A stretch of 64,000 nt of DNA from Chiloscyllium plagiosum (taxonomy: Eukaryota), in contig NC_057722.1 of NCBI RefSeq assembly GCF_004010195.1, positions 43,036,229 to 43,100,228 of the forward strand, in the 5' to 3' direction. Shown piece by piece: positions 4,734 to 60,626 of the stretch; the first letter of the stretch is position 1, and every line of letters starts with the position of its first letter. The position numbers were made by a program, and so were the translations under genes. Under the pieces are notes generated by a model. The model worked only from the letters and a program-made list of their open reading frames with translations. It did not search any database and had not been told where the DNA came from.

Positions 4734-4803
4734 CAGAGCCTCGATTACCTGCAATAGATAGTAATTCTTGTTCAGCACAGAAACCTGGTCATGATTTTTA
4801 TTA

Positions 4804-9755: not shown

Positions 9756-12313
9756 AACAAAACGTGCATTTGCATACACATGTTTTTGAGGAAAAAAATC
9801 TCATTAGAAATTTGACTCTTTCTCACCACTCACTTCTCACCTCTGAATACTTAAAGCTAGTAAACCAAACAAAATTAAATCACCATTACTTCAAAACTGC
9901 TAACCCACAATTAGAAATAGAAAAATATAGTACAGAATTAACATTCTTGTGTTCTCATTTTGGCAAAGTTGGCTTCAATAATGTACTCTGATGCTTACTA
10001 ATACATCCGGTGCAAAGCAGCCCATAATGATAAGAGACAAACCTGGCTGCAGCCCAGCATACCATAGATAAGTTTCATGTAGCACCAGCTTTCAGAAAAA
10101 TAATGAAAAGAATGAAGCATGTTGAATAATATTCACAGTAGCAGAGAAAGGCTGACGCCACCAAGGAAGTGATGATTAACAGATCTAGGTAAACCATCTG
10201 AAACACTTCACCTTTTTTGATTCTTGAACCAGAAGTGTAGAATATTTCAAATTGTTATGGCTCTGAACTATCTTAGTTTAGCACAGTGTTACAACTTATC
10301 ATCTTTCAATTGTCAGATTTTCCTTTTTATTTCCTTCCTTCCTGTAAATCCAAATTAATGAAAAACAAAAGTGCCCAATTCATCCATGCAACTACAAGGT
10401 AATGAATTACATGCACAATGGAACTGACGTTCTTAAGGAACATGTATTATAAATCATTCAACAACATCAAAAATCTGCTCCATTGTTATTGCTCAGAAAG
10501 GTTGTGACAGAGCAGTTACAATCTGGCAAACCATTACATATAGCAGTTTTATTATAACCATGAAATATGAGACTTCTAGAATCATGAAGTAAAATCTTTG
10601 TAATGACTTGCCATACTGTAATATTTTCATAGAAAGGTGAGAAAGTGCGAATACAGAAATGGTCATTAGAATCCATGAGGCCCATCCCACTGTCCTTACA
10701 TATAGCATATAAAGCAAACTGCTCTAATGCATCCCTGAAAGATGATGAAACATACCAAACTTTTTGAGAGCTTATTTTGCCATATTGTCAGATTCCAATG
10801 AGTGCATCATAGTTCATACAACCATTTTTTAAAAAAATTAGCATATTGATGTGGCTAAAGTTCCCATTTGTGTGCTCTCCAGCATACAATCTATTTGTCC
10901 AATGAAATATTTAATAGGAAAATGGAAGAAAAAAAATCAAAAGCTCCAAATGGAATCTTGACAGTCATGAACTGATTTACCCAGGAAATAAACAACTAAC
11001 AAAATAGGCACAAACTTTTAACCTTCAATATAAAATAACCTGAAAAATAGAAGTGTATATTCAGAAGGGAACGCAACACAAGTGAACGTTATAAAGTGCA
11101 ATGATGCATCAGAACTGGCCTTTTTGAAATCCTTTGCTGAAGTTCTATGTGAAAGCTGCCTACATTTTCTTTTATTCATTGGTGGGACTTGGGCGTCACT
11201 GGCTGGCCAGCACTGATAGCCCATCCCTATTTGCCCTTGAGAAGTTGGTGGTGAACTGCCTTCTTGAATCGTTGCAGTCCACTTGCTGTGAGTTGACCGA
11301 CAATGCCAGTAGGGAGAGAATTCCAGGATTTTGACCACCATCTGTGAAGGAACGGTGGCATATTTCTAAGTCAGGGCGATGAGTAGCTTGGAGGGGAACT
11401 TGCAGGTGGTAATGTTCCCAAGTACCTACTGCCCTTGTCCTTCTAGATGGAAGTGGTCATGGGTTTGGAAGGTGTTGACGAAGAAATTTTGGTGAATTTT
11501 TGCAGTGCATCTTGTAGAGAGTACACACTGCTACTACTGAGCGTTTGTGGTGGAGTGATTGATTGTTTGTAGTTGTGGTGCCAATCAAGCAGATTGCTTT
11601 GTCCTGGATGGTATCAAGCTGCTTGAGTGTTGTTGGAGCTGCATCTATCCGGGCAAGTGGAGAGAATTCCATTACATTCCTGACTTGTGCCTTGTAGATG
11701 GTGGATAGACTTTGGCGTGTCAAGAGGTGAGTTACTCACCACAGTAGTAGTCTCTGACCTGCTGTTATGACACTGTGTTGATGTGCTGAGTCCAGCTGAA
11801 TTTCTGGTCAATGGTAACCCTAAGGATGTTGACAGTGGGAGATTCAGTGATGGTATTACCATGAAATGTCAAGGGGCAGTGGTTAGAGTGTCTCTTATTG
11901 GTGATAGTCATTGTCTGACATTTGTGTGGCACAAATGTTACTTGCTACTTGTTGACCCAAGCCTGGGTATTGTCCAGATCTTGATGCATTTGAGCACAGA
12001 CTGCTTCAGTATCTGAGGAGTTGCGAATTGTTCTGAACACTGTACAATCATCGGTGAACATCCCCACTTCTGACCTTATGACAGAGGAAAGGCCATTGAT
12101 GAAGCAGTTGAAGATTGTTGGGCCCCTAGGACATTACCCTGAGGGAGTCCTGCAGAGATGTCCTGGAGCTGAGATGACTGAACCTCAACAGCCACAACTG
12201 CAACCAACTTCCTTTGTGCCAGGTATGAGTCTAACCAGTGGAGTGCTTGCCCCCTGCCACTGATTGACTTCAGTTTTGCCAGGGCTCCTTTATGCCATAC
12301 TTGGTCAAATGTG

Positions 12314-12511
12314 AGCTGAAAATGTGTTGCTGGAAAAGCGCAGCAGGTCAGGCAGCATCCAAGGAACAGGAGAATCGACGTTTCGGGCATAAGCCCTTCT
12401 TATGCCCGAAATGTCGATTCTCCTGTTCCTTGGATGCTGCCTGACCTGCTGCGCTTTTCCAGCAACACATTTTCAGCTCTGATCTCCAGCATCTGCAGTC
12501 CTCACTTTCTC
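12314..12511. mobile_element. Palindromic PLE pLTR insertion B with 14-bp TSD, nested in LINE-B RT
   Basis: TSD cttggtcaaatgtg at 12300-12313 and 12512-12525. The arms are inverted and both CUGAnGA cores are lost at the apex. Confidence 0.93.
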
Positions 12512-13045
12512 CTTGGTCAAATGTGGCCTTGATGTCAAGGGCTGTCACTCTCACCTCACCTCTGGAATTCAGTTGTTTTGTCCATGTTTGAACCAAGGTT
12601 GTAATGAGATCAGGAGTTGAGTGACCCTGGTGAAACCCAAACTTGGTGTCACTAAGCAGGTGCTGCTTGGTAGCACTGTTGGTGACCCCTTCCATCACTT
12701 TACTGATGATGGAGAGTAGACTGATTGGATGGTAATTGGCCAGGTTGGATTTGTCCTGCATTTTGTGTACAAGACATACCTTGGCAACTTTCCACATCGT
12801 CAGATAGATGCCAGTGTTGTAACTGTACTGGAAGAGCTCGGTTAGGGGAGCAGCAAGTTCTGGAGTCCACATCTTCAGTATCATTGTCCGAATGTTATCA
12901 GGGCCCATTGCCTATGCAGTGTCCAGTCTCTCAGTCATTTCTTGATATTGCGTGGAGTGAATCAAATTGGCTGGAGATTGGTATCTGTGATGCTGGAACG
13001 ACTGGATGAGCCTGAGATGGATCATCCACTCGGTACATCTGACTG

Positions 13046-14415
13046 ACAAAAAAATGAAACCAGACAGACTACCTGGCATCGACTTTGGAACTGGAAAAGA
13101 CAATGGCAAAAACACAAACAGCCCTGTCGACCATGCAAAGTCCTCCTTACCGACATCTGGGGGCTAATGCCAAAAATGGGAGAAGTGTCTTGTCTTTTGC
13201 ACTGGTGTGTTGGACTCCTCCATCTTTGAGGATGGGAATATTTGTGGAGTCTGCTCCTTCAGTAGTTGTTTAATTGTCCATCATCAATTACGGCTGGATG
13301 TGGAAGGACTGCAGAGATTAGGTCTAATCCATTAGTTGTAGGATCACTTAGCTCTGCGTATCACTTGCTGTTTATGCCGTTTGGCACATATGTATTCCTG
13401 TTAGGCAGCTTCGCCAGGTGACACCTTATTTTTAGGTATGCCTGATGCTGCTCCTAGCATGCTCTCCTGCACTCTCCATTGAACCAGGGTTGATCTCCTG
13501 GCTTGATAGTAATGGTTGAGTGGGGAATATGCTGGGCCATGAGGTTGCAGAATGTGCTGAAGTACAGTTCTGCTACTGTTGATGGCCCACAGCATCTCAC
13601 GGATGCCCAGTCTCGAACTGCTAGATCGGTTCGAAGTCTGTCCCATCTAGCACAGTGATAGTGCCAAACAACACGATGGAGGTTATTCTCAATGTAAAGG
13701 CGGAACTTCATCTCCACAAGGACAGTGCAGTGGTCACTTTTACCTATACTGTCATGGACAGATGCTTTTGCAATCGGTAGATTAGTAAGAATGAGGTCAA
13801 GTATATTTTTCCCTTGTTGGTTCCTTCACCATCTGCCGCAGATCCAATCCAGCAGTTATATCCTTTAGGACCCTCCCAGATCAATCAGTAATGCTGCTGC
13901 TGAGCCACTCTTGGTAGTGGGCATTGAATCCACCTAACCAGAGTACATTTTGTGCCCTTGCCAACCTCAGTGCTTCCTCTAAGTGTTGTTCAACATGGAG
14001 GAGTACTGTTTCATCAGCTGAAGGAGGACAGTACATGGCAACCAATAGGAGGTTTCCTTGCCCATGTTTAACCTGACCACATGAAATTTCAAGGACTCTC
14101 AGGGCAACTACCTCCCAATTGTATACCCCTGTGCCACCAGCTATGCTGGGTCTGTCCTACCAGTGGGACAAGACATATCCAGGGATCGTAATGGTGGTAT
14201 CTGGGGCATTATCAGTAAGGTATGATTCTATAAGAATGACAATGTCAGGCTGTTGCTTGACCAGTCTGTGAGACACTTCTCCCATTTTTGGCATTAGCCC
14301 CCAGATGTCGGTAAGGAGGACTTTGCATGGTCGACAGGGCTGTTTGTGTTTTTGCCATTGTCTTTTCCAGTTCCAAAGTCGATGCCAGGTAGTCTGTCTG
14401 GTTTCATTTTTTTGT
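13046..14415. repeat. Perfect 145-bp inverted repeat (13046-13190 / 14271-14415)
   Basis: Base-by-base reverse complement with no mismatch found by eye. Confidence 0.92.
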
Positions 14416-14597
14416 TGTGATTTTCTAACAATTGATACAACTGGGTGGCTTGCTAGGCTTTTTCAGAAGGCAGTTGAGAGTCAACCACATTGCTGTGGCT
14501 CAGGAGTCACATGTAGGACAAATCAGGTAAGAATGGTAGATTTCCTTCCCTGAAGGACATTAGAGAAGCTTCAGAAGTATGAAGGTCTCCAGTCCAA

Positions 14598-15345: not shown

Positions 15346-15349
15346 ATGT

Positions 15350-15487
15350 TTTTATTAATTCATAAAGTGTGGGCATTGCTAGCTAGGCTAATATATGTTG
15401 TCAATCCCTAATTGCCTACAGGGCAGTTAAGAGTCAACCACCTTGCTGTGGTTCTGAAGTTACATATAGGCCGGACCAAGTAAGAAT
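15350..15487 (-). mobile_element. Deu-domain (SacSINE1-like) SINE, 3' half, cut by a CR1 insertion
   Basis: LINE-B tail (...atccctaattgcc) joined to agggcagttaagagtcaaccac... Confidence 0.75.
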
Positions 15488-15489
15488 AA

Positions 15490-17853: not shown

Positions 17854-18194
17854 CATCTCCCTCAGCAGCACTTCAACAATCCTACTAATTCATTTGGGAA
17901 TTGATTAATGGATTTCATGGACACTTTTCAAGCCACATGTTGTAATCCACAGTCATGAAGTAGCAGTCAGAGCCTACAAGATAGCAAGCTGATCTTACAT
18001 ATCTTCAATCTGGCTTCATGCTGCAGTATTCAGACATTGATTTGGTTTCAGCTTGTACTACCATGGAAAGAGCAACATTGACCTTCATAGGTTGCATCAT
18101 GCTTGGATGTTAATGGAGTTGATCATCATTTGTATAATGAAGAGGAAAAGTTCAACCACCGTGCACAGCACTGTATGAGTTACTCAGGTATTTA

Positions 18195-18462
18195 AGAGGA
18201 CAGTTAACCACTTTGCTGTACGCTGGGTTTATATATAAATCAGATTGCATAAAGACATTGGGTTCTCTTCCCTAAAGGGTAGAGTGAACCTGTTGGGTTT
18301 TATAATAATTTAGTTGTTTCATGGTCACCATTTATTGATAAAAAGTTATTTTCTCAATTTATTAACTTTCCCAGTTGCTGTTGAGGAATTTGAACTCATA
18401 TTTCTGGATTACCAGCCATGGATTATGAATTAGGATACCAGGAATATGTCGACTATGCTATT
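18195..18462 (-). mobile_element. Old, diverged Deu-domain SINE
   Basis: Collinear similarity to 41730-42016 (ttccctaaagg...gtgaacc...ttcatggtcacc...gaatttgaactc...tctggatta). Confidence 0.6.
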
Positions 18463-19533
18463 GTATCCTAGTTGTCCTGTCTTACTTAGATATGTATCAC
18501 ATTAGGTTGATTTCTGCAATCTTTAGGGCATACCCAACTTATGCAAATGGATCAGCCACCAACAGCTCCATTAAAACAAGAAGTTGGACACAGACCATAC
18601 TAATACTAAAAGACTTAAAGATTTATACTCCAAAACCACAATGTCTGGGGTTATTAGGTCTTCCCATTGAAATTGTTCTTTAGTAAAATTAACAGAATGA
18701 CTTTATTAAATGATAGTCTGAGTTTCTACCATTTTGAAGCTTTTGGAAAATGAATGCAAATGACCAATAATTTTTTTATTTTACACAATTATGTCAAGCT
18801 TTTGCTGAAATAAATGATAGTGAGCAGAATGATACCGTGGAAATCAAAGGAAGAATAAAATCAAGACAAATGCATTCACAGATTGTGGTATCCATTTGGA
18901 TTTTGTGGTTTATTGTTTGATTGGTTATGAGTTAATTGCCTGTAAATCATCAACTACTTATTGGAAATTATGTTGATAAACAAACTGCAAAGATGACAAT
19001 TAGTGGTTACTCATCATTTACTATAGAAAACTTGATGGTGCATTAAAAGGTGTTATTTACTTCCTCATGTTGATTTTCCATCTGCTTAGTGTAGCAAAAG
19101 AAAACAACAGCAGCAGTACATCATTTTATGGATACACAGTTCAAATATATCATTTAAGAACAAATGAGAATTTCACCTGAGGTGTACTTTGAGTGGGAAT
19201 GCCCAACCTGGGAAATAGCCAAAACTCTCATGATGCAGGTAAGGAGAGGTTCATCTGTGCCTGCTGCATATGTTATATTAAACTCAATTTAATAAATAGA
19301 AAACTGATGACGACTGACCATTTCCCCCACTCTTTAATGTCCAATCAGTTTGTGAACAAGAAGTTGATGCAATGTTCAGTGTATGCTACGCAATCAAAAA
19401 TGCTGGTCTCCCAAATCAGGATCATTGCTTTCTGCCATGGATCTTCATGTAGTGGAACAAGTTGACTTTTGATCCCAGATTTCGAACATTAGCAAGACAT
19501 GCCATGTGACAGTGTGATCCTGAGTAGAGGTTT

Positions 19534-19868: not shown

Positions 19869-20953
19869 ATTTGCAGGTTCTCCCAGTTCTTGTTCAATGT
19901 TGTAAAAGATGGCCACGGAGACTCATTTATTCAAGAGAACCAAATACGTTTCATTCCCCCATACTACAGTGAAACAAATGAAGGGAACATACAGTTTGAC
20001 AAGGATAGCAAGCTAGTCTCTGGTGCAGGGTGCTATTGACTTCACAAACATTACTTTTTGTGAGTTGCACATGAATTTACAGATGTATCACAGGTGGAAA
20101 GCTTTGATTTAATTGTCTGGATGTCCAGGTTCACCATGTGCAGTGCTTCATGCACATCCATACTTGGTATCCTGGCAATAATGATGACACCTCCATTCTG
20201 TGACAGTCCACTACACAATTTGCCTTTACTGGGCATAACATGCCTCACACTTCTGTGAGTCCAAGTGCAAAACCAGAGAGTGGTAATAACAACAGCTGTA
20301 AACATTAGACATTGGGTTGACATAGAGAGGTTTTTGTTGTCAAACGTTTCCTAATGTGATCTTTAGAAAGCTGAGCTGGCACAGCTGATTCAGTATTAGA
20401 TCTCCTTGTTAATGCTAACTGTTCAACAAAATGGCCACCAAGGTATATTAAGTGCTCAATATTTTCCAGAAACCTTCAACATACATAGGAGGTCGAACAT
20501 TTGACTGATCAGATCAAATACATGAATTTGTTTTAGTAGCATTCAAAGATTGGCTGACACCCTTGTATATAGAAATAAAGGGTTCAAGAGTATTTTGTAA
20601 ATCTAGTGCTGAGTAGGCAAAGACACCTCAGTCATCTGAAAATCCTTCTACTACAGTGACACCTGAACTGTGTATCCAAGGAACATAAAAGAGCATAAGA
20701 GAACCCTGAATGGTTTTTCAGGGGTACAGCATAGATGTATTTGAAATGAAGATAGAAAACAACAAAGGGAGAAAAGAATAGAAGCATATGTTGATTGGAT
20801 TAGATGAAGTAAGTTGAGAGGAGACGAATGTGAGGAGCATAAATAAACCTAAATGTACTATATGTTAGATCTAGTTCTTTGTAAATATGGAACAATATAT
20901 GAAATTATGATGGAATATCCAACTCTGTGATCTCACCAGAGATAATGAATTAT

Positions 20954-21242
20954 TAAATTACTTACAGTGTGGAAACAGGCTCTTCGGCCCAACAAGTCCA
21001 CACCGACCCACCGAAGCGTAACCCACCCATTCACCCCTTTTACCTAACACTATGGGCAATTTAGCATGGCCAATTCACCTGACGTGCACATCTTTGGACG
21101 TGGGAGGAAACCGGAGCACCCGGAGGAAACCCACGCAGACAATGTGCAAACTCCACAAAGTCAGTCGCCTGAATCGGGAATTGAACCCAGGTCTCTGGCG
21201 CTGTGAGGCAGCAGTGCTAACCACTGTGCCACCGTGCCACCC
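20954..21242 (-). mobile_element. HE1-like V-SINE
   Basis: A/B boxes (tggcacagtgg; gggttcaattccc), V-domain and CR1-like tail on the minus strand. Confidence 0.92.
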
Positions 21243-21621
21243 AAGGTTAGCAAGGTTAGATCTCAATGAGAAGCCTTCTGCTTGCATTGATTTTTTTTTT
21301 AACTAGCCATCAATTTATGCTGAGTAAATATGCTAGCCATTAGTTCTCTTATTTGCAGCTTTTCTTCCTTATCTATTTATTGCAATAATGCCTCACATTG
21401 TTCACCACAACTATTTAGGAAAAGATGTCATGTTTAGTAAAGTGATTTCCTGAATGGTTTACCTGCCTATTTGAATATTTATTAAAGTTCTCATTACTAA
21501 AACTGAAAAATAAAAGTATTTGCTCTTTGCATTCTAATTTTTTTCATGTTATGCGGAAATTCCATCTTATTTTGTAATTTGAATATTGCTCTGGCAGATT
21601 GCAGTTTCATCCAATTAACAA

Positions 21622-21800
21622 GTGACGTTGGTAGTGGGCAAGTTGTTGGAGGGAATCCTGAAGGACATGACGTACCTGTATTTGGAAAGGCAAGGACAGA
21701 TTAGGGATAGTCAACATGGCTTTGTGCGTGGGAAATCATGTCTCACAAACTTGATTGAGTTTTTTGAAAAAGTAGCAAAGAGGATTGATGAGGGCAGAGC
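21622..21800 (+). mobile_element. CR1 RT fragment, inverted relative to and duplicating part of the adjacent CR1
   Basis: Reads VVGKLLEGIL...SQHGFVRGKSCLTNLIEFFEKV. It is homologous to about 22089-22250 on the minus strand. Confidence 0.9.
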
Positions 21801-23671
21801 TGTCCACTACACCTCCAATTTCGGTGTCATCTCCAAACTTACTAACTGAACCTCTTATGCTTGCATCCAAATCATTTATGTAAATGACAAAGTTAGAGGA
21901 CCCAGCACCGATCCTTATAGCACTCCACTGGTCACAGACCTCCAGTCTGAAAAACAACCCTCCACCACCACCCTTTGTCTTCTACCTTCGAGCCAGTTCT
22001 GTATCCACATGGCTGGTTCTCCCTGTAATCCATGAGATCTAACCTTGCTAACCAGTCTCACTTGGGGAACCTTGTTGAATGCCTATTGCTCTGCCCTCAT
22101 CAATCCTCTTTGTTACTTCCTCAAAAAACTCAATCAAGTTTGTGAGACATGAAGCCATGTTGACTATCCCTAATCAGTCCTTGCCTTTCCAAGTACATGA
22201 ACATCCTGTCCCTCAGGATTCCCTCCAACAACTTGCCCACTACCAACATCAGGGTCACTGGTCTATAGTTCCCTGGCTTGTCCTTAACACCTTTCTTAGC
22301 CAACTTCCAGTCTTCCGGCACCTCACCTGTGACTATTAATGATACAAATATCTCAGCAAGAGGCCCAGCAATCACTTCTCTAGCTTCCCATCGAGTTCTA
22401 GGGTACACCTGATCAGATCCTGGGGATCTATCCACCTTTACCCATTTCAAGACATCCAGCACTTCCTCCTCTGTAATCTGGACATTTTGCAAGGTGTCAC
22501 AATCTATTTTGCTACTTTCTATATCTTCCATATCCTTTCCCACAATAAGTACTGATGCAAAATACTCATTCGGTATCTCCCCCATTTTCTGCGGCTCCAA
22601 ACAAAGGCTGCCTTACTGATCTTTGAGCGGCCCCATTCTCTCCCTCGTTACCCTTTTGTCCTTAATATACTTGTAAAATCCCTTTGGATTCTCCTTAATT
22701 CTATTTGCCAAAGCTATCTCATGTCCCCTTTTTGCCGTCCTGATTTCCCTCTGAAGTATACTCCTACTTTCTTTATACTCTTCTAAGGATTCACTCAATC
22801 TATCCTGACTATACCTTATATGTGCTTCCTTCTTTTTCTTAACCAAACCCTCAATTTCTTTAGTCATCCAGCATTCCCTATACCTACCAGCCTTTCCTTT
22901 CACCCTAACAGGAATATACTTTATTTGGATTTTCGTTATCTCATTTCTGAAGGCTTCCCATTTTCCAGCCGTCCCTTTACCTGCGAACATCTGCCCCCAA
23001 TCAGCATTCGAAAGTTCTTACCTAATACAGTCAAAATTGGCCTTTCTCCAATTTAGAACTTCAACTTTTAGATCTGGTCTATCCTTTTCCATCACTATTT
23101 TACATCTAATAGTCTTATGGTTCTCCCCCACTGACACCTCAGTCATCTGCCCTGCCTTACTTTCCAAGAGTAGGTCAAGTTTTGCACCTTCTCTAATAGG
23201 TACATCCACATACTGAATCAGAAAATTGTTTTGTACACACTTAACAAATTCCTCTCCATCTAAACCCTTAATACTATGGCAGTCCAAGTCTATGTTTGGA
23301 AAGTTAAAATCCCCTACCATGACCACCCTATTATTCTTATAGATAGTTGAGATCTCCTTACAAGTTTGTTCCTCAATTTCACTCTATTAGGGGGTCTCTA
23401 ATACAATCCCAATAAGGTGATCATCCCTTTCCTATTTCTCAGTTACACCTAAATAACTTCCCTGGATGTAATTCCAGGAATATCCTCCCTCAGCACAGCT
23501 GTAATGTAATCCCTTATCAAAAATGCCACTCCCCCTCCTCTCTTGCCTCCCTTTCTATCCTTCCTATAGCATTTGTAACCTGGATCATTAAGCTGCAAGT
23601 CCTGTCCATCCCTGAGCCATGTTTCTGTAATTGCTATGATATCCCAGTCCCATGTTCCTAACCATGCCCTG

Positions 23672-23874: not shown

Positions 23875-24408
23875 CTAATTTAAATTCTCTCGAGCAGCTC
23901 TAGCAAATCTCCCTGCCAGCATATTAGTCACCATCAAATTTAGGTGCACACCGTCCTTCTTGTACAGGTCACTTCTACTCCAAAAGACATTCCAATGGTC
24001 CAAAAATGTGAATCCTCCTCCCATATACCAGCTCCTCAGCCATGCATCCATCTCCTTTATCCTCCTATTCCTGCCCTCACCAGCTCGTATCACCGGGAGT
24101 AATCCAGATATTACTACCCTTGAGGACCTCCTTTTTAAATTCCTGCCCAACTCCCTGTAATCTCCCTTCAGAATCTCAACCTTTTCCCTTCCTATGTCGT
24201 TGGTTCCAATGTGGACAATGATCTCTTGCTGGCCCCTCTCCCCCGTGAGAACATTCTGCATCCACTCTGAGACATTCTTGATCCTGGCACCAGGGAAACA
24301 ACAAACCATTCTGATTTTTCGCTGCTGGCCACAGAAATGTCTTCCTGTACCTCGGACTAGAGAGTCCCCTAACACAATTGATCTCTTGGAACTCGACGTA
24401 CTCCTCAT
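23875..24408 (-). pseudogene. CR1 ORF1p SGNH/GDSL esterase domain
   Basis: Blocks IVLGDSLVRG, CFPGARI, VHIGTND and DGVHLN. An upstream coiled-coil piece (RLERQLEAMRNLQ, 24489-24689) is in a separate ORF. Confidence 0.9.
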
Positions 24409-25586
24409 TGCATTCGAGCCAGTCTTAATACCAGAAACTTGGCTGTTCGTGCTACATTCCTCTGAGAATCCATCACCCCTTACATTTTCTAAAACAGCAT
24501 ACCTGTTGAAATGGGTATAGCCACAGAAGGTTCCTGCACTAGCTGCCCACCTCTCTTACCTTTCCTGGACTTAACCCATCTGTGTGAGTGTTTCTGAGAC
24601 TCTCCCCCCTTCCTATAACTGCCATCCATCACATACTGTTGCTGTTGCAAATTTCTCATTGCTTCTAACTGTCTCTCCAACCGATCCATTCGATCTGATA
24701 AGATTCACAACCAACAGCATTTATCTCAGATATAATCCGCAGTAACCCCTAAAGTCTCTTTAAACTCCCACATCTGTTAAGAAGCGCATATTACTCTTCT
24801 AAAGGCCATTTTTGCTCCTTCACAACCTACAGATTTATTCCTCTACAAAACACTGTCCCAGGTTAAATTAATAGTTACGGCTTATATTTTAAGTTTAATC
24901 AAGAGACATATCTCAAAAAACATATAATTCAAGAAAGAACCCACTCTACTCACTACTGCACACTTTCTGTAGGTCACACTTAAACACAATACACTTATCT
25001 GCTTCTGTGCTGTGAACTTTGCCAAAACAGTTCCTCCAAGATCCGTTGTGAATTTCACTGTTTGTTCATTTTCCCAAGCGCACTTCGATGTCCAGTGATA
25101 CATGAATTCAAACAGCAAAGGCAGTAACTGCACAGGTTCACTGCTGTGTCAGTTTCTCTCTCTCTCTCTCCAGCACTGTCCTCTTCATGTGCTTCCTTTG
25201 TTCTTCTTCCTTTTAAAACTGTTATTGTTTTGATTTTTTTTCCCCAAAGTTCCAAAATAATGCAACAGTATATAAAACAGTAATTGCCGCTCCTGGAACT
25301 CAAGGAAATCACCTCCAGCACCTAAAATGCCTCAAAAAAGGAGCAACTTTACAGCCAGAAATTTTCCCCATCCTCCATTATGTATTACCCAGAATCTTGC
25401 GTGGTGAAAAATTCAAAATCAATGCATTGTTCAAACAAAGAAAAGTTGCCTGCATTTTAGTGCTAAAAATTATTTCCTAAAGTATTCTTATTCTCAGAAA
25501 ATTTATGTTACCAATTTGTATATATCTACCATGAATTATTATGCTTTTTCTTTTCCAAATGATAAAACATGATGTTATACATGTTT

Positions 25587-25868
25587 TAGATTAGATTACT
25601 TCCAGTGTGGAAACAGCCCCTTCAGCCCAACAAGTCCACACCAACCCTCTGAAGAGCAACCCACCCAGACCCATTCCCCTACATGGCCAATTCACCTAAC
25701 CTGCACATTTTTGGACTGTGGGAGGAAACCAGAGTACCAGGAGGAAACCCATGCAGACACAGGGAGAATGTGCAAACTCCACACAGTCAGTCGCCCGAGG
25801 GTGGAATTGAACCTGGGTCTCTGGCACTGTGAGGCAGCAATGCTAACCACTGTGCCACCATGCTACCC
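25587..25868 (-). mobile_element. HE1-like V-SINE
   Basis: SINE consensus match with a (tagat)n tail and a possible TSD catgtt (25580-25585 / 25869-25874). Confidence 0.92.
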
Positions 25869-26171
25869 CATGTTGTTGTTTTCTGGTTTTCTGGTTTTCT
25901 GGCGGTTTATGTATCTTCACAGTGATGATGTATGAATCTGCATGAATACATGTTTCTCCTGTGTATAAATATTCCTAAAAACTTAACAACATTTAACCCA
26001 CCCAAAAGATAGACTGTTGTTAAGTTCCAAACCTTATTATCAATAGTAAGTGTCCAAGCAGAATGGAGACCAAAATTAGTAGCCAAAGAATTTGACTCTT
26101 TTTGTTTCTTTTCTTTTTGTGGTACATTTTTCCTGATTGTCATCCTTTGATTTTTACACCAAAAAGGCTTG

Positions 26172-28290
26172 TTTTTATTCATTCAGAAATGTGTGAAGCA
26201 TTGATTGGGCTAGCATTTATTGCTCATCCCTATGTACCTCTCAGAAGTTCTGGTGACATGTGTTCTTGAATCACTCCGATACATTTGGTGTAGTTACACC
26301 CACAATGTCTTTAGGGACAGTATTTCAGAATTTTGCCCTAGTGACACTGAAGGAATGGCAATATATTGTCAAGTAAGGATGGTGAGTGTGTTGGGGGGGA
26401 TCATGTAGGTGGTGCCCCATATATTTGCTGCCTTTGTCCTTCTGGATGGAAGTGGTTATGAATTTGGCAGGTTTTGTCAAAGAAGCCTTTGGGAATTTCT
26501 GCAGTGCATCTTGCCGCTGCTACTGAGCATCAGTGGTAGAGGGAATTAATATTTCTGAATGTGGTTCCTGCTAAATGGGTCACTTTGACCTGGATGGTGT
26601 CAAGCTTTCTCAGTGATATTGGAATTGCAAGTGTTCAGGCAAATGGGAAGTATATCATACACATTCCTGACTTGTGCCTTGATAGTGGACAGACTTTGGG
26701 GAGTCAGGACTCAAGTTATTCATTAAAGAATTCCTAGCCTCTGATTTGGTCTTGTATCCACATTAGACACATGGCTGGTCCAGTTTAGTTTCTGGTCATT
26801 GATAATCCCTAGTACATTAATAATGGAAGGTTCAGTAATGGTTTTGCCATTGAATCACAAAGGATGCAAGTTAGTTACAATTTGGTTGGGAAAGGTCCTT
26901 ATCTAGTACTTGTGGAATCACTTAGTTTTGTCCATCACTAGTTGTTTACATTGTTTGGGATGCTAATTACCCTACTCTGCAGCTTCATTGAGTTGACATC
27001 TCATTTTTAGGTATGCCTGGTGCTGCTCCTGGCATTCTCATTCCTGCACTCTCCATTGAACTTGTGTTGATCCCCTGGCTTGATGGTAATGGTAGAGCAA
27101 GAGTTATGCCATATCACAAGGTTACAGATTGTACTGGAGCATAAATCTGCTACTGGTGATGTCCCACAGCAACTCATTGATGCCCAAACTTGAGTTTCTC
27201 GGTTTATTCAAAGTCTATCCTATTTAGCATAGTGTAGTGCCACACAACATTTTGAAGGGTTTACTCAATGTGAAGTCAGGACTTTGTCTCCATAAAAACA
27301 GTGCAGTGGTCATTCTTACCAAAACAGTCATGGGTAGATACATCCGTGCCAGGCAGATTGATGAGAATGAGATCAAGTATGTTTTTCCCTCTTGTTGGTT
27401 TCCTCATCACCGGGCACAAATTCAGTCTAGCTACGTCCTTTAGAAGTTGACTAGCTAGGCAGTAGTGATGATGTCAAGCCTTTTCTGGTGATGAACATTG
27501 AAGATCTCCAGTCAAAGTTCATTCTGCACCTTTTCCATCTTCAGTCCTTCCTCCAAGTGCTATTCAACATGGAGGAGCACTAACTTATCAGCCAAGTGGG
27601 TTGCTGTATGTGTAATCAGCAGGAAGTTTCCTCTCCCATGTCTGACCTGATGCCATGAGGATTCATGGGGTCCAGATTCAATGTTGAGGACTTGCAGGAC
27701 AACTTCTTCCTAAGTGAATGCTGCCACGTCTTGTGTTTTGCTGGTGGGAGAAGTCTGGTGCTGATGTTGGTTGGGACCTTCTGTGTAAGCTTTGATTCTG
27801 TGACTAGAATTATATTGTTAGGTTGTTGCGTGACTAATCTAAGCTGTTGTGAAACAGCTTTCCCAATTTCGGCACTTAGTCCCCAAATGTTAGTAAGAAG
27901 GATTTTCAGGGTCAACAGTAATGTATTTGCTGTTGTTGCTTCCTGAGCTTTAGTTAATGTCAGGTGGTCTGTCTGGTTTCATTGCTTTTCTTTCTTTCTA
28001 AAGAATGATACAACTGAATGGCTTGATAGTCTATTTCAGAGAGCCAACTACATTGCTGTGGGTCTGAAGTTGTGTGTTCCAGACAAGGACAGCAGTTTCC
28101 TTTCCTAAAGAGCATTAGTGAACTGGATGGGTTTTTATGACAATCGATAATATTTTCATGGTCATCATTCAGCATGTTATTCCAGATTTTTACTGGATTC
28201 AAATTCTAACGTACGCTGCATTGGTACTCCAACCAAACCATTACTTGGGTCTCTTGATAACTCGTCCAGAGACATTGTCATTAGGCCAAC
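26172..28290 (-). mobile_element. LINE-B copy with internal deletion and full tRNA/Deu-like head
   Basis: Collinear with 11168-11950 and 13260-14560. APE start KILLTNIWGL...QQPNNIILVTES (27616-27915). 28035-28290 matches the SINE head. Confidence 0.85.
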
Positions 28291-33434: not shown

Positions 33435-33746
33435 GGGGCGGCACGGTGGCACAGTGGTTAGCACTGTTGCCTCACAGCGCCAGAGACCCGGGTTCAATTC
33501 CCGCCTCAGGCGACTGACTGTGTGGAGTTTGCACATTCTCCCCGTGTCTGCATGGGTTTCCTCCGGGTGCTCCGGTTTCCTCCCACAGTCCAAAGATGTG
33601 CAGGTCAGGTGAATTGGCCATGCTAAATTGCCAGTAGTGTTAGGTAAGGGGTAGATGTAGGGGTATGGGTGGGATGCGCTTCAGCGGGTCGGTGTGGACT
33701 TGTTGGGCCGAAGGGCCTGTTTCCACACTGTAAGTAATCTAATCTA
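33435..33746 (+). mobile_element. HE1-like tRNA-derived V-SINE, young and full length
   Basis: A box tggcacagtgg, B box ggttcaattcc, V-domain tgtggagtttgcacattctccccgtg...ggtttcctccggg, CR1-shared tail and (taatc)n end. Confidence 0.95.
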
Positions 33747-34589: not shown

Positions 34590-34899
34590 TATCACCTTCA
34601 TCCCCACCCCCATTCACCCATTGTACTCTTTGCTACCTTCCCCACTCTCCTCTCTGACCTATCACCTCCATCCCCACCCCCACTCACTTATTATACTCTT
34701 TTCTACTTTATCCCCACCCCCATCCCCCTCTCATTTATCTCTCCACTCTGCAGGCACCCTGCCTCTATTCCTGATGAAGGGCTTTTGCCCGAAACGTCGA
34801 TTTTCCTGCTCCTCGGATGCTGCCTGACCTGCTGTGCTTTTCCAGCACCACTATAATCTAGACTCTGGTTTCCAGCATCTACAGCCCTTGTTTTTACCA
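34590..34899 (+). mobile_element. PLE 3' end (second subfamily) with pLTR
   Basis: Pyrimidine-rich PLE 3' region followed by a pLTR homologous to insertions A-D. Confidence 0.85.
34771..34798 (+). ncRNA. Minimal hammerhead ribozyme motif with canonical CUGAUGA
   Basis: CUGAUGA-A-GGGC(UUUU)GCCC-GAAAC-GUC. Confidence 0.8.
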
Positions 34900-39877: not shown

Positions 39878-41689
39878 ATTTTCTCAAATGTTTTCTGCTG
39901 TGCTAATAACCTTCCATTTGCCCCTTTATCAGTGTTGTCTGGGAGCTTTGGTAAACTGCTCATAACCCATTGTTGCCACAAATAAATACTACAATTAGCT
40001 GTGGGATGTTCTGACAGAGGTAGACTGGAAACCTTGCTAGTGTGAACCAATGAACATTTATTAACTATTTCCAGAGATCAGCAGGGATCCATTGGAATCT
40101 TTTTCCCTCAAATCCCAGTTCCAAGTGATCTGACATTATCTGACATCACTGAGTCACTTCAGCTATTAGCTCAACTATTAATTGCACAGACAACTATTTT
40201 TTATCTCAAAAACTAATTGCAGAAGTGTATTCCATTGGCTCAATTGTGCAAAGATGTTTCTCCTGTTCTCTGTTCTAAATGTCTTACAATTAAACTTAGA
40301 ACTTAAATATTGTTACTTTATAAAGAGCGACATAAGGAGTGCATGAACTCCAGCTGTACAAAAGGCTTGCATTAACATCTGAACTTTTAATGATCATTTT
40401 GTCCAAACCAAGAAATAAAATGCAAACTAATTATGGCAGGGTATACCGGCACACTGTTGATTGTCATTAAATTGCTCAAAAAAGGTTTATTTCTCCATTT
40501 TAATAGTGGATCAATCACATGTGAAATCTTCATTGCAAGTTTTAATTTAGGATAATTGGTTTACAATTAAAACAAGCTAGTGACGAACAAAAACCCATGT
40601 TCATCACCTGTGTTGTAGTTGATGGCACAGCAGTCAATAGGATTAATCATTGTCTGCAGCTTGGTTAATGTTTCTTTTGTCTTATTTTGTTTACTTTTTG
40701 CTTCAACATTCTGTATTTTTCTTCCTTTTTCCTTATTTGTTTTACTTCTTGGATACATCTGCTTTTCTCTTGGGAAAATAAAGGAAACAGGAGACCATTA
40801 TGCAAGTCATGCTATCTCGCAACTGCATCTGTTGAAAAAATTACCCCAAAAATGTTTATTCAATATGCCTTCCAATTTCTATTCCAGTTTATAGAAATAT
40901 AAAACAAATACAAGTTTTTTTATAAAATGTTTGTAATTTGGGGCTCCAAACACATAATAGCTAGTGTGAAACTTGATTATTATTGGGATTTAGTTCTCCT
41001 GCTACCAAATGCTGAGAAAACAAAGCCAGCTATTGAAAAACATGAATTCTTTAAAACTGAAAACTTTTTTATCTTAAATATTATAAATCTTGAAAACTGC
41101 ATTCTTACCTGTCATGGTTGCATTGTAAGCATTATTTTCATGTGTCATATACAATTGGTACACCTGACTTCCTCAGTTGACTAGTCTTGACGTGGATATT
41201 AAATTTGGTGACAATCGAGTTCCCTGTGAGGAAGCTTACAACATTGCTCTGGGGTAATAAACCTCTCGCTTCTCATTTCTCAAGCTGGTGGGACCATCAT
41301 TGAAGAGAATTACAAATATATTTATAACATTATAATATTCCCATGAAATCAACAAACTGTCTCTGCATTTAAAATATAACTTGCGTTAATTTGTCATTTG
41401 TAGTGCAAAGCTGGAATGGTGTGAGGCTATCTAAGAGAGGTAATCGCTTTACTGTGCTTGGAAGTTAAAGCGTAAACTAGACTCTGGAGTTATGCTGCTA
41501 TTTTCATTAACATTTCAACAGACAGGTAAATGGTTCAGCCAAAGCAAAGCATGATTTTATATGTTTTGGTCAAGAAAACACACTTTACATCAAAAATTCA
41601 TTTTTGAATCTACTGGCTAAAAAGCTTGAATTAATTTTGTTTTAGGAAATAAACAAAACTCCAGCAATTCAATTTTTAAAAAATACATT

Positions 41690-42016
41690 AATGGTATTTG
41701 GACATCACTGCCCATCGTAAATGCCCAGAGGTCAATTAAGAGTCAATCACATTGATGTGGGTCTGGGGGTCACACGTAGGCTAGACCAGGTAAGAATAGC
41801 AGATTTACTTCCCCAAAGGGCATTGGTGAACCAGATGTTTTTTTTTCTGACAATCAACAATGGATTCATGGTCATTGTTAGACTCTTAATTCCAGATTTG
41901 TAATGAATTCAAATTCCACCATCGACAGTGGCAGAATTCAAAACCAGGATCCCAGAACAGCATATGGATCTCTGGATTAATAGTCCAGTGATAATACCAC
42001 TAGGCCATCATCTCCC
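41690..42016 (-). mobile_element. Deu-domain (SacSINE1-like) tRNA-derived SINE
   Basis: Minus head gggagatgatggcctagtggt (A box) ...ggttttgaattc (B-like), a conserved body and a LINE-B tail. Confidence 0.85.
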
Positions 42017-46250: not shown

Positions 46251-46310
46251 ATCAGGATTCATAAGAAACAGAGTTGTTGTTAGAATGACTGATGAGCCTT
46301 TGTCAAATGT

Positions 46311-54500: not shown

Positions 54501-55014
54501 GGTTGGGAAGCCCATTATTCCAACTTTAATGACCTGCAGCTTTTAACAGCTTGACTCCTTTAAAAACAATTCTATCAGATTCTGGTTCATGGGCAGTCTG
54601 GTGCAGGATTGATGAAGTCTGCCAAACACAACAGCAGCTGCAGTCTAGATAGGTAGACAGATAGGGCAAGAGAGAGATCATGAGCACTATCATGATAATG
54701 TTACAGGGAGGGTAAAGCAGAGCAACAGTTCAAATACCATCATGTTAGCTGTTGAAACTTGTATTCTGTAAATGAATAAATCTGGAATCTGAGCTAGTTA
54801 CAGTAATGATGGTAATAAAATGATTGTACTATTGTTAAAACCCCCCTGGTTCATAAATGTCTTTAGGTGAAAGAGATTTGTCACCATTATCTGGTTCAGG
54901 TTACATGTTACTCTAGACCCCCAGAATGTGATTGACTTTTTAATGCCCTCTGTAATGAACAAACAAACCATTCAGCTGTAAGAAACTGCTACAAAGAGGT
55001 CAAAAATAAATAAA

Positions 55015-55184
55015 GCAGGAGAATCGACGTTTCGGGCATGAGCCCTTCTTCAGGAATGGCGTGAAGAAGGGCTCATGCCCGAAACGTCGATTCTCCTGCT
55101 CCTTGGATGCTGTCTGACCTGCTGTGCTTTTCCAGCAACACATTTTCAGCTCTGATCTCCAGCATCTGCAGTCCTCACTTTCTC
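55015..55184. mobile_element. Palindromic PLE pLTR insertion D with 14-bp TSD
   Basis: TSD caaaaataaataaa at 55001-55014 and 55185-55198. A short inverted arm (about 43 bp) precedes the full arm. Confidence 0.92.
55026..55053 (-). ncRNA. Minimal hammerhead ribozyme motif
   Basis: Minus strand CUGAAGA-A-GGGC(UCAU)GCCC-GAAAC-GUC. The plus-strand mirror at 55061-55088 lacks only the first C. Confidence 0.75.
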
Positions 55185-55633
55185 CAAAAATAAATAAAAC
55201 CAAACATAAAACCTGTATTGACCTAGACACTTGAAAAGGACAATGGCACATCTTGTAACAGAGAACTCTGTAAAATCCTCTTCAGTAATATCTGGGGGCT
55301 TGTGTCAAAACTGGGAAAGCTATCATACAAACGAATGAAGTAGCAAACTGATAATAGTCATACTCACCATATCAATCAGTCAACCAGACTCCTCCATCAC
55401 CAGCCTTGGGTTTTTCCTCTCCCACCAGCAGGACACAATCACCAGAAGTGGTCGCACACTGTTATACAGCTGAGTGTGTGTTACCGCTCCTTGACAGCTC
55501 ATAGAATCAAGTCAAATATTAGAAAGAAAATCTCCTGCTGATTACCACCTGCACCCTCCCTAAACTAATAAATCAACACTTCTCCACAATGAACACAAAT
55601 TGAAAGAAGCACTGAAGGTAGCAAAGGTACCTT

Positions 55634-56775
55634 AGATGGGTCAGTTTTTGTCCAATGTATGCATGAGAGTTTCCTGACACAGAATGTAGATAGGTCAGCA
55701 AGAGGTGAGGCCACATTGTAAAGGATCGTGAACTGGGCCAGGCTTTAGATTTGGAGGTAGGTGAGCATTTTGGTGATAGTGACCCCAATTTGGTTATATT
55801 TACTCTAGTGATGGAAAGGGATAGGTATACACCACTTGACAAGAGTTATATCTGGGGGAAAGGCAACAATGATGTGATTAGACAAGATTTAGGATGCTTA
55901 GGATGGGGAAGGAAATTGCAGGGGATGGGTGCAATTGAAATGTGGAGCTTGTTCAAGGAACAACTACTACATGTCCTTGATAAGTATGTTCCTGTCAGGC
56001 AGGAAGTGATAGAGCGAGACTGCCGTGGTTTACTAAAGAAGTTGAATCTCTTGTCAAGAGGAAGAAGGAGGCTTATGTAAAGATGAAGCGTGAAGGCTCA
56101 GTTAGGGCGCTTGAGAGTTACAAGTTAGCCAGGAAGGACCCAAAAGAGAGAGCTAAGAAGAGCCAGGAGGGGACACGAGAACTCTTTGGCAGGTAGGATC
56201 AAGTAAAATGCTAAAGCTTTCTGTCGGTATGTCAGGAATAAAGGTATAACTGGAGTAAGGGTAGGGCCTGTCAAGGACTGTAGTGGGAAGTTGCGCATGG
56301 AGTCTGAAAAGATAAGAGGTGCTAAATGAATATTTTTTTAGTGTTCACACAGGAAAAAACAATGTTGTCAAGGAGAATACTGAGATACAGGCTATTTGAC
56401 TAATTGGGATTGAGGTGTCCCAATTTGCAAATGGCACTAAGGTCAATGAAGTTGTGGACAGTGTTGAAGGATGTTGCAAGTTACAGCGAGACACAGATAA
56501 GCTACTGAACTGGGCTGAGAGGTGGTCAATGGAGTTTAATGCGAAAAAGTGTGAGGTGAAAAGTGGAAGGAATAACTGGAGTACAGAATACTGGGCTAAT
56601 GGTAAGAGTCTTAGCAGTGTGGATGAGCAGAGAGATCTCAGTGTCCATGTGCATAGATCCCTGAAAGTTGCCTCCCAAGTTGATAGGGTTGTTAGGGCAT
56701 AGTGTAGATTTAGTGTGCCATTAGCAGTACAGACTTAATAGACTGAAGGCCCTCTTCCTTACTCTATGATTCTGC
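55634..56775 (+). mobile_element. Internally deleted CR1 nested in LINE-B
   Basis: APE end VGEHFGDSD, linker, then a jump to SQFANGTKV...WSMEFNAKKCEV and a 3' tail ending ctctatgattct. Confidence 0.85.
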
Positions 56776-57362
56776 ATATGACTGTTAGGCAACTTTGCTG
56801 CATAATCTTTGTGGAGATGAGTCTCATTTTCACTCTGAGAATACTCTTCATTATGATATGTGGCACCACCACCATGCTCAATAGGATAGCTTCAAAACAG
56901 ATGTGGTAGCACAAAATTGTATATCCATGAGGTGCTGGGGACCATCAAAACCAGCAGATTTATATTCAACCAAAATCTGTAATGTTATGACCCAGCAAAT
57001 ACCCCAGTTTGGTATTACCATCAAGTGAGAGAATCACCACAAGTTCCATGAAGAGTGCAGGTGAAAATATCAAGAATAGCAGTAGACATATCTAAAATGA
57101 AGTCTTAACGTCTTAATGCTATAACACTACATGCATGCCACACAGAAGAAGTAACATTTTAAAGCCAAACTAAACAATCCCACAATCAATGGATTGGAGC
57201 AAAGCTCTGTAGCACTGCAACATCTAGTCATAACTGGATGACAATTAAAAACTAACCACATGAAAATCTACAAGTATTCCCAATTCTCAAATGATAGGGG
57301 AACCAGGCACTCCAAAGACAATATTGAAGCATTTGCAATTGTCTTCAGCCATATCAATTTTC

Positions 57363-57652
57363 TGTACATTAGTACATGTAGCAGATAGCACAGATAGTCT
57401 GATTTGTCTTGAGTCAGATGTCATCAAGTTTATTTACAAGTCTGCACTATTATAGGCTTACACACATAATTAGATGGCATGCTTACTGATGTTGCTGTCC
57501 CATACACATAATGACTGCACTTACCCCATTGCAAAGAGAGACAGATGGAAGGTAAGGTGGGTATCTTCATATTGGAATGTCACATGTCATGAGGTCATTC
57601 AACATTCTTAAAAGGGACAGGCCTGTTTTGGAATCTGTGACATAACACAACA
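57363..57652 (-). mobile_element. Possible short solo LTR nested in LINE-B
   Basis: About 290 bp of unrelated sequence interrupts LINE-B and is bounded by TGT...ACA. Minus-strand AATAAA lies at 57428-57433. No TSD seen. Confidence 0.4.
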
Positions 57653-59949
57653 TGTGTTAAGTAGGTGATCCATTTCATCCTCCTCCTGAAGTTCAAGATA
57701 TTATAGTGTTGATCTTCAGCCACTGCAATTCATTCCATGTGAGATCACGATAATGTTGAATATATCGAATATGGCAAAGTTTGAGTTCTGACAACATTCC
57801 AGTTACAGAAGACTTGTGCTCCAAAATAATACTTGACCTGAATAGACTTCTTTCAATATAGCTCCAACTCTGTTATCTATTGGGCAATGTGGAAAACTAA
57901 GCAGGTAAGTCCTTTCATAACAATGCAGTACAAATCAAATGTGACCAATTACAGTTCCAACTCATAAATAATCAATAAAGAAATGGCAAATGTCATTGAC
58001 AATGATATCAACAACACTTATCCAGCACAAGTTTTGGTCTAAACATGGACAGAAGAACCTCAAGGAGGTAAAGTGAAAATGACTACTCTTGACCTCAAAT
58101 CCACATTTGCCCAACTGGCATCAGGAGGTCTAGAAAAAACTTGAATTATTTTGGACTAGGAAGAAAAGTGGAGTCATACCCAGGACAAGGAAGGATGTTC
58201 CTTTTGGGGCTGAGGCTTTATGGCAGAACATCCTCAGCAGACAGTTCTACGCCCAATCATCTTGGGCTACTTCACCAATGGTCTTCTCTCTGTCAAATAG
58301 TCAGAATTGTGGATGCTCATTAATGATTTCACTGCATTCATTAGCAGTCAGAGTTCCTCAAAAAATGAAGCAGTCCATGTCCATGTGCAGGAAGACCTGG
58401 GTAATATTCAGGCTTGGGTATTAGGTAGCAAGTAGCATGAGTCACACCGGAGTAAGGCAATGATTGAGTTCTGCTGCAATAACCCATCTCCTGAGTCACC
58501 AAAGCATGTCCGCCATCTGCAAGGCATAAATATGGAACATTCTCCTCTTGGCAGAATAAGTACAACAGTCCAACAAATCTCAACACCAATCTGGGACAAT
58601 GCAGCCTATCTGAATGGCACACTACCTACCACTGCTACACAGTGACAGCAGTGTGTACTATCTACAAACAAGCTGGTCCAACAGGTGACTCCTGGACTAC
58701 AATGTGCCTGCCAAGAGCTCACATCCAGTCTGTGACCCATTTTTCAAATACAGGTCAGTACATGGGAGATTTAAAGGAATATTCCTCCAAGCAAAGGCCA
58801 TTTCTCTCATTTGCAGTGAGCTGACTAGAAGAGAAATTGCTTCTGATCAGAGGTCCAGTGAGCTATGAGGCTATTTCTATCTTCACTGAGCCAGAGACCT
58901 GGACATTGGAAGCATCGGTGAGTCTGCAGAGATTGCAAAGTCTATGTTGATGAGGGAACCAGGCTGGGGTTGGTGAGTGGGTCAGTAGTCCATTGTATAA
59001 GCAAACCACAGACTGAATTAACAAAATTATTAAGGGAAGGGAGAGAATTAGAGAGATTGTGAGTGCGTCTCTATGTGGCAGGGAGTGAGAATGAAACTAT
59101 GTGTTTGTTGGAAGAGTGGAGTGAGAAGAGAAGTGTGCATGTAAATATGGGGAGGAATGAGGAAGTGAGAGTGTATATGAACACAATTAAGGGAGATAGA
59201 ACACATATACCTTTCCAGAAAGCAGGCCAAGAACTGAAGCAAACTCACTTTGAAAGGTAACCTTCTGTTGACATCCAGTTTCATCTGAATTTCACTAAGC
59301 CCACCTTGGAGTGTTCACCACCGGGATAAAAAATATTTTAGCAATTAGTTCTAATGCATTGTAATTTCTAAAATAAAAGTTTTCATCAATGACTCATTTA
59401 TTAAATTATTAATTTATTGCTTTGGAATTCTTTTTGTTCTCTAAAATCCATGTTTACTGTTGGATCAAACCTTATCCTTGTGATATTTGAGTATTGTTGA
59501 AGAAAGGCACATTTTCTCAGATTTTTGTGTTGTACTCATCAGGACATTCATCATTATCTGGCTCATTTTCCAATCCCATCAGAGTCAACCTTTCTGTTTT
59601 AAATTTAAACAAAGCTCAGCTGTTAACTGTCCATCATCATCTAACTGGTAATTCCTTGTACTAATCAGAATAAACCTGCCAACCAATCATTACTCTCTTT
59701 TAACTCAATAACAATTTTCCACTTTATTAGTATTCTTATGACTGTTCTGATTTGTAAAAGACAAAGCCCTTTGCCAAATCAGATCTTTTCTCAACAATAC
59801 TTAAGTTTTGTCCTACAATTCCCCCCCTCCCCCCCCCCTCCCTTATTTGAGAGGAAAACTGAGATCTGTCTTCCAATGGAAAAGGTTGGGCAAACTCAAT
59901 CTATTATAAGGTTAACTTGAATGAAAGAAACTGTTGCTTTGTAATCTAT

Positions 59950-60320
59950 TAGAGTCATAGAGATGTACAGCATGGAAACAGATCCTTCAGTCCAACCCGT
60001 CCATGCCAACCAGCTATCCCAACCCAATCTAGTCCCACCTGCCAGCACCCGGCCCATATCCGTCCAAATCCTTCCTATTCATATACCCGTCCAAATGCTT
60101 TTTAAATGTTGCAATTGTACCATCCTCCACCACTTCCTCTGGCAGCTCATTCCATACATGTACCACCTTCTGTGTGAAAAAGTTGCCCCTTAGGTCTGTT
60201 TTATATCTTTCCCTTCTCAACCTAAACCTATGCCCTGTAGTTCTAAATTTTCTGATGCCAGGAAAAAGACTTTGTCTATTTATCCTATCCATGCCCCTTA
60301 TAATTTTGTAAACCTCTATA
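59950..60320 (-). mobile_element. CR1 3' end
   Basis: GHRFRLRRERYKTDLRGNFFTQKVVHVWNELP plus 3' UTR. Confidence 0.93.
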
Positions 60321-60626
60321 ATTCATGGGATGAGGGTGTTAGTGGCTAGGCCCTTCTCTAAATGCCTAGAGGGTAGTTAAACGTTAATCACATTGCTGTG
60401 ATTCTGGAGTCACATGTAGGCCAGACCAGGTGAGGATGGCAGTTTCCGTCCCTAAAGGGCATTAGTGGCCCAGATGGGTTTTTCCTGACAATGATCATCA
60501 TTGAACTGTTAATTCCAGGTTTTCCTTGAATTCAAACTCGTTGGAATTTGAACTCAGGTCCTGAGAATACTGCCTGGGTCTCTGGATTAACAGTCCAGTG
60601 ATAATACATTGGACCATTGCCTCCCT
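60321..60626 (-). mobile_element. Deu-domain (SacSINE1-like) SINE
   Basis: Full collinear match to 41690-42016. Confidence 0.85.

Follow-up and report, generated by a model that had tools for sequence, protein, structure and literature searches.

The window analysed here, a stretch of 64,000 nucleotides of the Chiloscyllium plagiosum genome (contig NC_057722.1, positions 43,036,229 to 43,100,228 of the forward strand), contains three copies of a LINE family that opens with a tRNA-like head. A family majority sequence of 3.3 kb was built from 55 genome loci. In this element the tRNA-like head (nt 1-95) is followed by a body extending to nt 293, a linker to nt 432 and then APE and RT in one frame, which ends at nt 3234 and is succeeded by a short tail with an A-rich end. 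The focal copy (26172-28290, minus strand) is 73% identical to the majority sequence and comprises element nt 9-1445 and nt 2583-3258; it is without nt 1446-2582, hence its RT core has been deleted. Its tRNA-derived head and body (28037..28290, minus strand, element nt 9-293) were matched by nhmmer from element nt 9 onward (E 5.5e-61), the start of the family at large being GGGGAG, and carry an A-box-like site at 28278-28288 and a decayed B box at about 28224-28234. The linker (27907..28036, element nt 294-432) includes a conserved AUG at 27980-27982, whose reading frame differs from that of APE. Next on the minus strand lie the decayed APE endonuclease together with the region that follows (26910..27906, element nt 433-1445; Pfam Exo_endo_phos and Exo_endo_phos_2 were detected on the sister copy L017), the C-terminal part of the ORF (26240..26863, element nt 2583 to about 3226) and a 3' tail with an A-rich run at its end (26172..26239), common to a companion SINE.

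The second copy (11165..14567, minus strand) belongs to a younger subfamily and is 5'-truncated at element nt 190. Its AUG lies at 14405-14407, its APE start at 14324 and the family ORF spans 11230-14324, all on the minus strand. A MITE is inserted at about 12313-12513, and the ORF also contains an inverted copy of element nt 342-486 (13046-13190), 145 bp long and 100% identical to the linker of the same element, which reflects either local duplication in the recent past or an assembly artefact. The third copy (54728..58670, plus strand), the oldest of the three, retains the head from the B box onward and has a MITE in its linker (about 55014-55187), an APE start near 55273 and further insertions downstream. 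The three copies thus differ in age and subfamily; in all of them body, linker and APE start are joined alike, and the APE start motif K-V/I-L-L-T-N-I-W-G is reached via the same linker. An earlier sequence-only reading of this DNA had described the same junction in three copies, which proved right for the order of head/body, linker and APE; its linker of about 150 bp is closer to 140 nt, and the body motif was quoted as the reverse complement, not in sense orientation. In addition, an old head-only match (18164..18465, minus strand, element nt 6-323, E 2.5e-12) represents a SINE variant or a truncated LINE.

Other repeats are interspersed with these copies. A young, palindromic MITE-like family of about 200 bp, with copies up to 95% identical and two of them inside Zenon copies, occurs at 4243-4340, 4800-5010, 12313-12513, 17635-17859, 34767-34888, 42140-42256 and 55014-55187. 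Another tRNA-headed SINE family of about 300 bp, presumably resembling the shark V-SINE HE1, is found at 19669-19872, 20952-21243, 25587-25885, 33436-33746, 39559-39897, 45778-46085 and 48955-49304. Canonical CR1-type fragments lie at 7748-8662, 14587-16909, 21623-22298, 23878-24555, 46298-47369 and 59937-61035; the fragment at 23878-24555 (minus strand) contains a 226-codon frame with a VLGDSLV motif, which we take to be like an esterase ORF1.

The head of the element has an A box at nt 11-21 and a B box at nt 74-84, the spacing between them being lengthened by a hairpin of about 20 nt in the variable region. When aligned to genomic tRNAs (22 distinct sequences, from 30 of 61 loci), it scored best with tRNA-Thr (z 7.9) and tRNA-Leu (z 6.9), and the isotypes Thr, Leu, Cys and Gln gave close scores. 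ARAGORN called no tRNA in the window or in four family loci and Rfam called none in three family loci. Folding against shuffled sequences revealed no significant structure in four natural heads (z -1.7 to +0.7) or in the majority head and body (z -1.0 to -2.0, the majority head being at -2.0). An extra hairpin at element nt 30-68 (about 28225-28270 in the window) resembles a duplicated anticodon arm in the dogfish consensus and shows, by eye, paired changes between species. We also considered a hammerhead ribozyme, as the younger subfamilies have a CTGATGA-N4-GAAA look-alike at about nt 143-157; it was dismissed by eye, since the look-alike is kept neither in the SINE nor in the published white-shark, catshark and dogfish versions.

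An ORF1 is absent. The 432 nt before APE have stops in all frames and the longest AUG frame there is 37 codons, which bears out the earlier statement that no room for an ORF1 exists. Copy L044 has 437 open codons through RT in one continuous frame and gave a Pfam RVT_1 match at E 2.4e-27; the Exo_endo_phos_2 match of L017 was at E 2.9e-11. The majority sequence is one base short near nt 2212, a point across which L044 is open. Most of the 12 copies having both ends terminate in short A-rich ends, some of them decayed. No intact copy was present among 154 protein matches or among the fetched RVT_1 loci (27 of 30 analysed; other families), and no convincing target-site duplications were seen in 12 LINE and four SINE copies. 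The copies fall into two subfamilies sharing 94.7% identity, and diverge from the respective majority sequences by 6-10% in one and 8-21% in the other. In the supplement of PMC13343379, three of 612 stingray copies are listed with an intact ORF2. Between the subfamilies, 50 of 84 differences in the ORF are at third positions, indicating purifying selection in the transposing lineage.

The head is the regular beginning of this LINE. A junction search of the genome returned 7527 candidates, and all 40 that were scored matched at 84-100%. Furthermore, to avoid bias towards the head, loci were picked by the APE protein alone, and 30 of the 154 matches were fetched. Of these 30, 27 reach into nt 1-293 and 11 start within nt 1-20; no alternative 5' UTR was found in this sample, the remaining three loci ending in the linker without a common alternative leader. 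GGGGAG is a start point shared by many family copies. These data support the conclusion that the junction is not chance nesting and that the head is the normal 5' end of the LINE, so that two proposals of the sequence-only reading, an autonomous-type LINE with a tRNA-derived, Pol III-type SINE head and a junction too constant for chance, are supported by these searches.

Judged by its sequence, the family is an elasmobranch Zenon LINE of the CR1 group with a single APE-RT frame and no ORF1. Zenon elements without ORF1 and with a poly-A tail are reported from five elasmobranchs in passages of PMC13343379, and two motifs from family loci have exact matches in the portion of its supplement that was available. 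By eye, the first 400 nt of all seven published shark and ray Zenon consensuses, from five species, show the same head, body and linker (RhiTyp_, CarCar_, ScyCan_ and HypSab_Zenon-1 and SquAca_Zenon-1/2/3); they are near-identical to our family, the whale-shark consensus being the closest. Over the same 400 nt, A/B-box-like heads open 7/7 of the shark and ray consensuses (the stingray B box is degenerate) and 0/3 of the hagfish and coelacanth ones. According to the same excerpts, the elasmobranch -1 consensuses are 3.24-3.31 kb long, with a single APE-RT frame, no ORF1 and an A-rich tail, as in the family described here. The best protein matches were APE-RT proteins 33-39% identical, one of them from lancelet. 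In a quick RT tree of 67 rows the family joined lancelet and butterfly proteins in a clade of 24 rows (SH-aLRT 99), apart from the CR1 of the genome, on a long branch and with no row named Zenon. Zenon membership rests on the match to the published consensuses, exact for the motifs and by eye for the 400 nt.

As head, body and linker are contained in the published shark and ray consensuses, the family is already published as sequence. The architecture had earlier been supposed undescribed; that supposition does not hold for the Zenon family and its lack of ORF1, and the tRNA head, though contained in those consensuses, goes unremarked in the main text of PMC13343379. Its main text and preprint contain no mention of tRNA, promoter or polymerase, and the passages of the paper that were available do not bring up the head, the T-run deficit, the out-of-frame AUG or the companion SINE. 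What was known is thus the shark Zenon, its lack of ORF1 and its consensus sequences; what is new is the lack of TTTT over 3.3 kb and the deficit of TTT in the ORF.

The same head also opens a companion SINE, in which element nt 1-293 (94% identical) are joined to the last 75 nt (83%). A search of the genome returned 10267 candidates, and 24 of 25 fetched loci were the short SINE form, the other one being a LINE head. Three lie in the window, all on the minus strand: 41680..42016, where element nt 2-293 are directly joined to the 3' tail; 60300..60625, with an approximate 3' boundary; and the 5'-truncated 15380..15487, which consists of element nt 223-292 and the tail, again with an approximate 3' boundary. 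In a second SINE form (L340, L344, L347 and L351) nt ~317 is joined to nt ~3223 and about 24 more 5' bases are kept. The short elements likely arose by internal deletion of the headed LINE. The two deletion junctions fit SINEs derived from a headed LINE, and it is equally possible that a SINE was the donor for the first graft. As for the head itself, a headless Zenon likely acquired it by grafting in the common ancestor of sharks and rays, as is suggested by the headless, T-rich Zenons of hagfish, coelacanth and a metagenome. Among 80 metagenome loci none matched the head (best E 0.25), these loci being distant at 26-39% protein identity, and a tRNA was called in one of 44 scanned, and not in front of the ORF. 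In a headless metagenome relative (L193:150-520) the 5' UTR is T-rich and has, by eye, short motifs in common with hagfish and coelacanth Zenon 5' ends; this leader may be the ancestral Zenon leader.

Pol III terminates at runs of four or more T. Internal terminators of this kind, which the sequence-only reading had proposed to look for, are missing from the element: the majority sequence has no TTTT and six TTT in 3.3 kb, as against 15 AAAA, and the older subfamily has no TTTT in 2.66 kb. Being 94.7% identical, the two subfamilies do not constitute independent tests. We compared the ORF with 2000 synonymous permutations in which protein and codon usage were held fixed. TTT runs numbered four, with 12.3 expected (ratio 0.33), and none of the 2000 permutations was as low (p below 0.001). 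Interrupted T-runs were likewise depleted (one observed, 6.3 expected, p 0.015), and AAA, CCC and GGG were not depleted in the same test; the absence of TTTT, with 2.1 expected, was not significant alone (p 0.085). As controls we used 55 distant ORFs of at least 450 codons from the 80 metagenome loci, and five LINEs of this genome, namely its CR1 and four family representatives from the RVT_1 search. TTTT was present in 55/55 and 5/5 of these, respectively, the comparison being one of majority sequences of the element with mostly single natural ORFs. The genome's CR1 alone has six TTTT in 1.2 kb, and L193, the nearest headless relative, has 36. The lowest observed-to-expected TTT ratio among the 55 distant ORFs was 0.65, compared with 0.33 in the element; expressed as a z-score, the deficit was -3.3 in the element and one of the 55 controls was comparable (-3.9). 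TTT occurs 5 times per kb even in a family whose T content is lower (16%), compared with 1.4 times in the element. Moreover, by eye and within the first 400 nt of the published consensuses, TTTT occurs in 0/7 shark and ray Zenons and in 3/3 hagfish and coelacanth ones. TT itself is depleted, so another compositional cause of the T-run deficit is possible. A deficit of T-runs on the sense strand is predicted by Pol III and not by Pol II transcription; as evidence for Pol III it is indirect. Reads from one poly-A single-cell sample (1559 from about 2% of one run, 0 from the other run) were skewed to one direction and piled at the head and the 3' end, with no start or end clusters.

How the protein could be made is less straightforward. 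No AUG in the APE frame occurs before nt 1180. The conserved AUG at nt 350, preceded by nine upstream AUGs, is the start of a 37-codon frame, which overlaps the APE start in a different reading phase, and in the published consensuses, as compared by eye over their available portions, homology begins at this AUG after a spacer of variable length. Of the four differences between subfamilies before nt 389, three fall at third positions with respect to the AUG frame; all four differences in nt 405-470 fall at third positions with respect to the APE frame. These eight substitutions suggest that the true N-terminus is encoded by the short frame, with a change of reading frame by the ribosomes somewhere between about nt 389 and 430. 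The linkers of the two subfamilies differ by an indel of 6 nt. No slippery site common to all species compared was found. The coding strand is more stably folded than synonymous-codon shuffles, with a mean z of -1.5 in the majority sequence (18 folding windows) and -1.3 in the natural copy L044 (ORF L044:1824-3134, eight folding windows), the mean z of seven other LINE ORFs used as controls being -0.5 to +0.3. This stable fold may help to protect an RNA that has no ORF1 protein.

Taken together, the tRNA-derived head and the near absence of T-runs make Pol III transcription likely. We judge it somewhat probable, on what can be read from the DNA, that Pol III transcribes this elasmobranch Zenon LINE, directed by the A and B boxes of its head, that the uncapped RNA is translated and that the element's own APE-RT carries out the insertion. 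TFIIIC and Pol III would start at nt 1 and Pol III would read all 3.3 kb because the terminators have been purged, stopping at the first T-run in the flank as in SINEs. In the uncapped RNA, translation would begin by internal initiation at the conserved AUG of nt 350, internal initiation being needed in view of the nine upstream AUGs and the missing cap. Ribosomes would then move into the APE frame, by a -1 shift or by re-initiation, between about nt 389 and 430, and the resulting APE-RT would attach to the 3' tail of the RNA and integrate it through target-primed reverse transcription. Counting against Pol III, passages of PMC10886601 describe non-LTR retrotransposons as Pol II transcripts and the length of SINEs as limited by Pol III processivity. 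The fuller proposition falls somewhat short of an even chance in our estimation: a protein-coding autonomous retrotransposon under Pol III, an "autonomous SINE", in which the Zenon 5' UTR gave way to a tRNA promoter in the ancestor of sharks and rays and the 3.3 kb were cleared of terminators. Translation of its structured RNA, which has no cap, would combine internal initiation with a programmed frame switch, and the SINEs would be deletion derivatives.

Alternatively, the head could be a captured SINE 5' end on a LINE made by Pol II, whether from a cryptic internal promoter or by read-through. The tRNA-like fold would then serve 5' processing or ribosome entry, at the place where other ORF1-less LINEs have a ribozyme. 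Such an element would obey the rule, stated in passages of PMC10886601 and PMC5786205, that LINEs use Pol II, and its translation would be more easily explained; the paired changes in the extra head hairpin, seen by eye between species, would point to selection on the RNA, and the TTTT test alone is not significant. However, Pol II transcription does not predict a deficit specific to T-runs over the whole sense strand, and it has against it that the same head, at 94% identity, opens a short SINE and that five species have retained the A and B boxes. We regard this explanation as rather unlikely. Less likely still, and to our minds distinctly improbable, is a division of labour in which Pol III makes the RNA that is copied and the protein is supplied in trans by Pol II read-through transcripts of other copies. 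It would account at once for the purge of T-runs and for the poor translation prospects of an uncapped RNA, and the abundant SINE, with its 10267 candidates, shows the enzyme working in trans; the purifying selection on the ORF (50 of 84 differences at third positions) is nevertheless easier to understand if the RNA makes its own enzyme.

The body had also been identified as a Deu domain, with a bearing on the origin of AmnSINE1 and SacSINE1, and this identification failed: no similarity was found by eye, blastn or nhmmer. The published Deu alignment (PMC7245038 Fig. S4) is, by eye, unlike the body of the element, as are the Meta and UCON3 SINE bodies in PMC7245038 Figs S2 and S4. A Deu motif had 14 exact matches in the genome, and the 12 that were fetched (L076-L087) are true Deu-SINE copies of an old, separate family. 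The best blastn match between these 12 copies and the head was at E 0.40, nhmmer gave none at E 10, and a profile built from them had no match in the window. As described in excerpts of PMC4824008, PMC5499810 and PMC7245038, the DeuSINEs SacSINE1, AmnSINE1 and LmeSINE1 are tRNA- or 5S-headed with a conserved body, SacSINE1 being a tRNA-headed shark SINE; they differ from the element in body and in their L2-type tail, and in this genome form a much older separate family. The SacSINE1 tail, in the relevant passage of PMC5499810, is L2-type and L2-2_CM-like, in contrast to the Zenon tail of the companion SINE. With neither head nor body matching Deu, our finding is silent on the origin of that domain. 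A Deu-domain SINE of the SacSINE1 kind as 5' end, or repeated SINE insertion before truncated LINEs, was a natural guess for a shark element with a tRNA head and a SINE-like body, but given the lack of Deu similarity, the Zenon rather than L2-type tail (PMC5499810, in part) and a junction identical in all spanning copies and in five species, it is extremely improbable.

Among known systems, those covered in passages of PMC5786205 (Bov-B/Bov-A/Bov-tA, Ingi/RIME, Vingi and RTE) resemble the present one in that a LINE without ORF1 contributes both the 5' part and the 3' tail of the short element. In those systems the short element alone has acquired a tRNA head, which its LINE lacks; here a full-length LINE of the CR1 group bears the head itself. 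The TRIMp3 elements Cassandra, Helenus and Ajax, as presented in part of PMC10886601, are non-SINE retrotransposons with a Pol III promoter derived from a small RNA; they are non-coding, non-autonomous LTR elements of 0.3-1.3 kb, in contrast to the 3.3-kb Zenon with its own APE-RT. No description of a tRNA-headed autonomous LINE was found in searches of the openly accessible literature.

Pol III normally makes only short non-coding RNAs, and the usual rule, as given in PMC10886601, sets LINEs, coding and made by Pol II, against SINEs, non-coding and made by Pol III. If our reading is true, a tRNA promoter drives a 3.3-kb coding element that sharks and rays have both retained; this would break the rule and furnish a natural example of a Pol III transcript that is translated. 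Losing the ORF by deletion would, moreover, turn a headed LINE directly into a new SINE. Bipartite derivatives are ascribed, in passages of PMC5786205, to RTE, Ingi, Vingi and R2 only, and the elasmobranch Zenon would add a clade of the CR1 group to these four.
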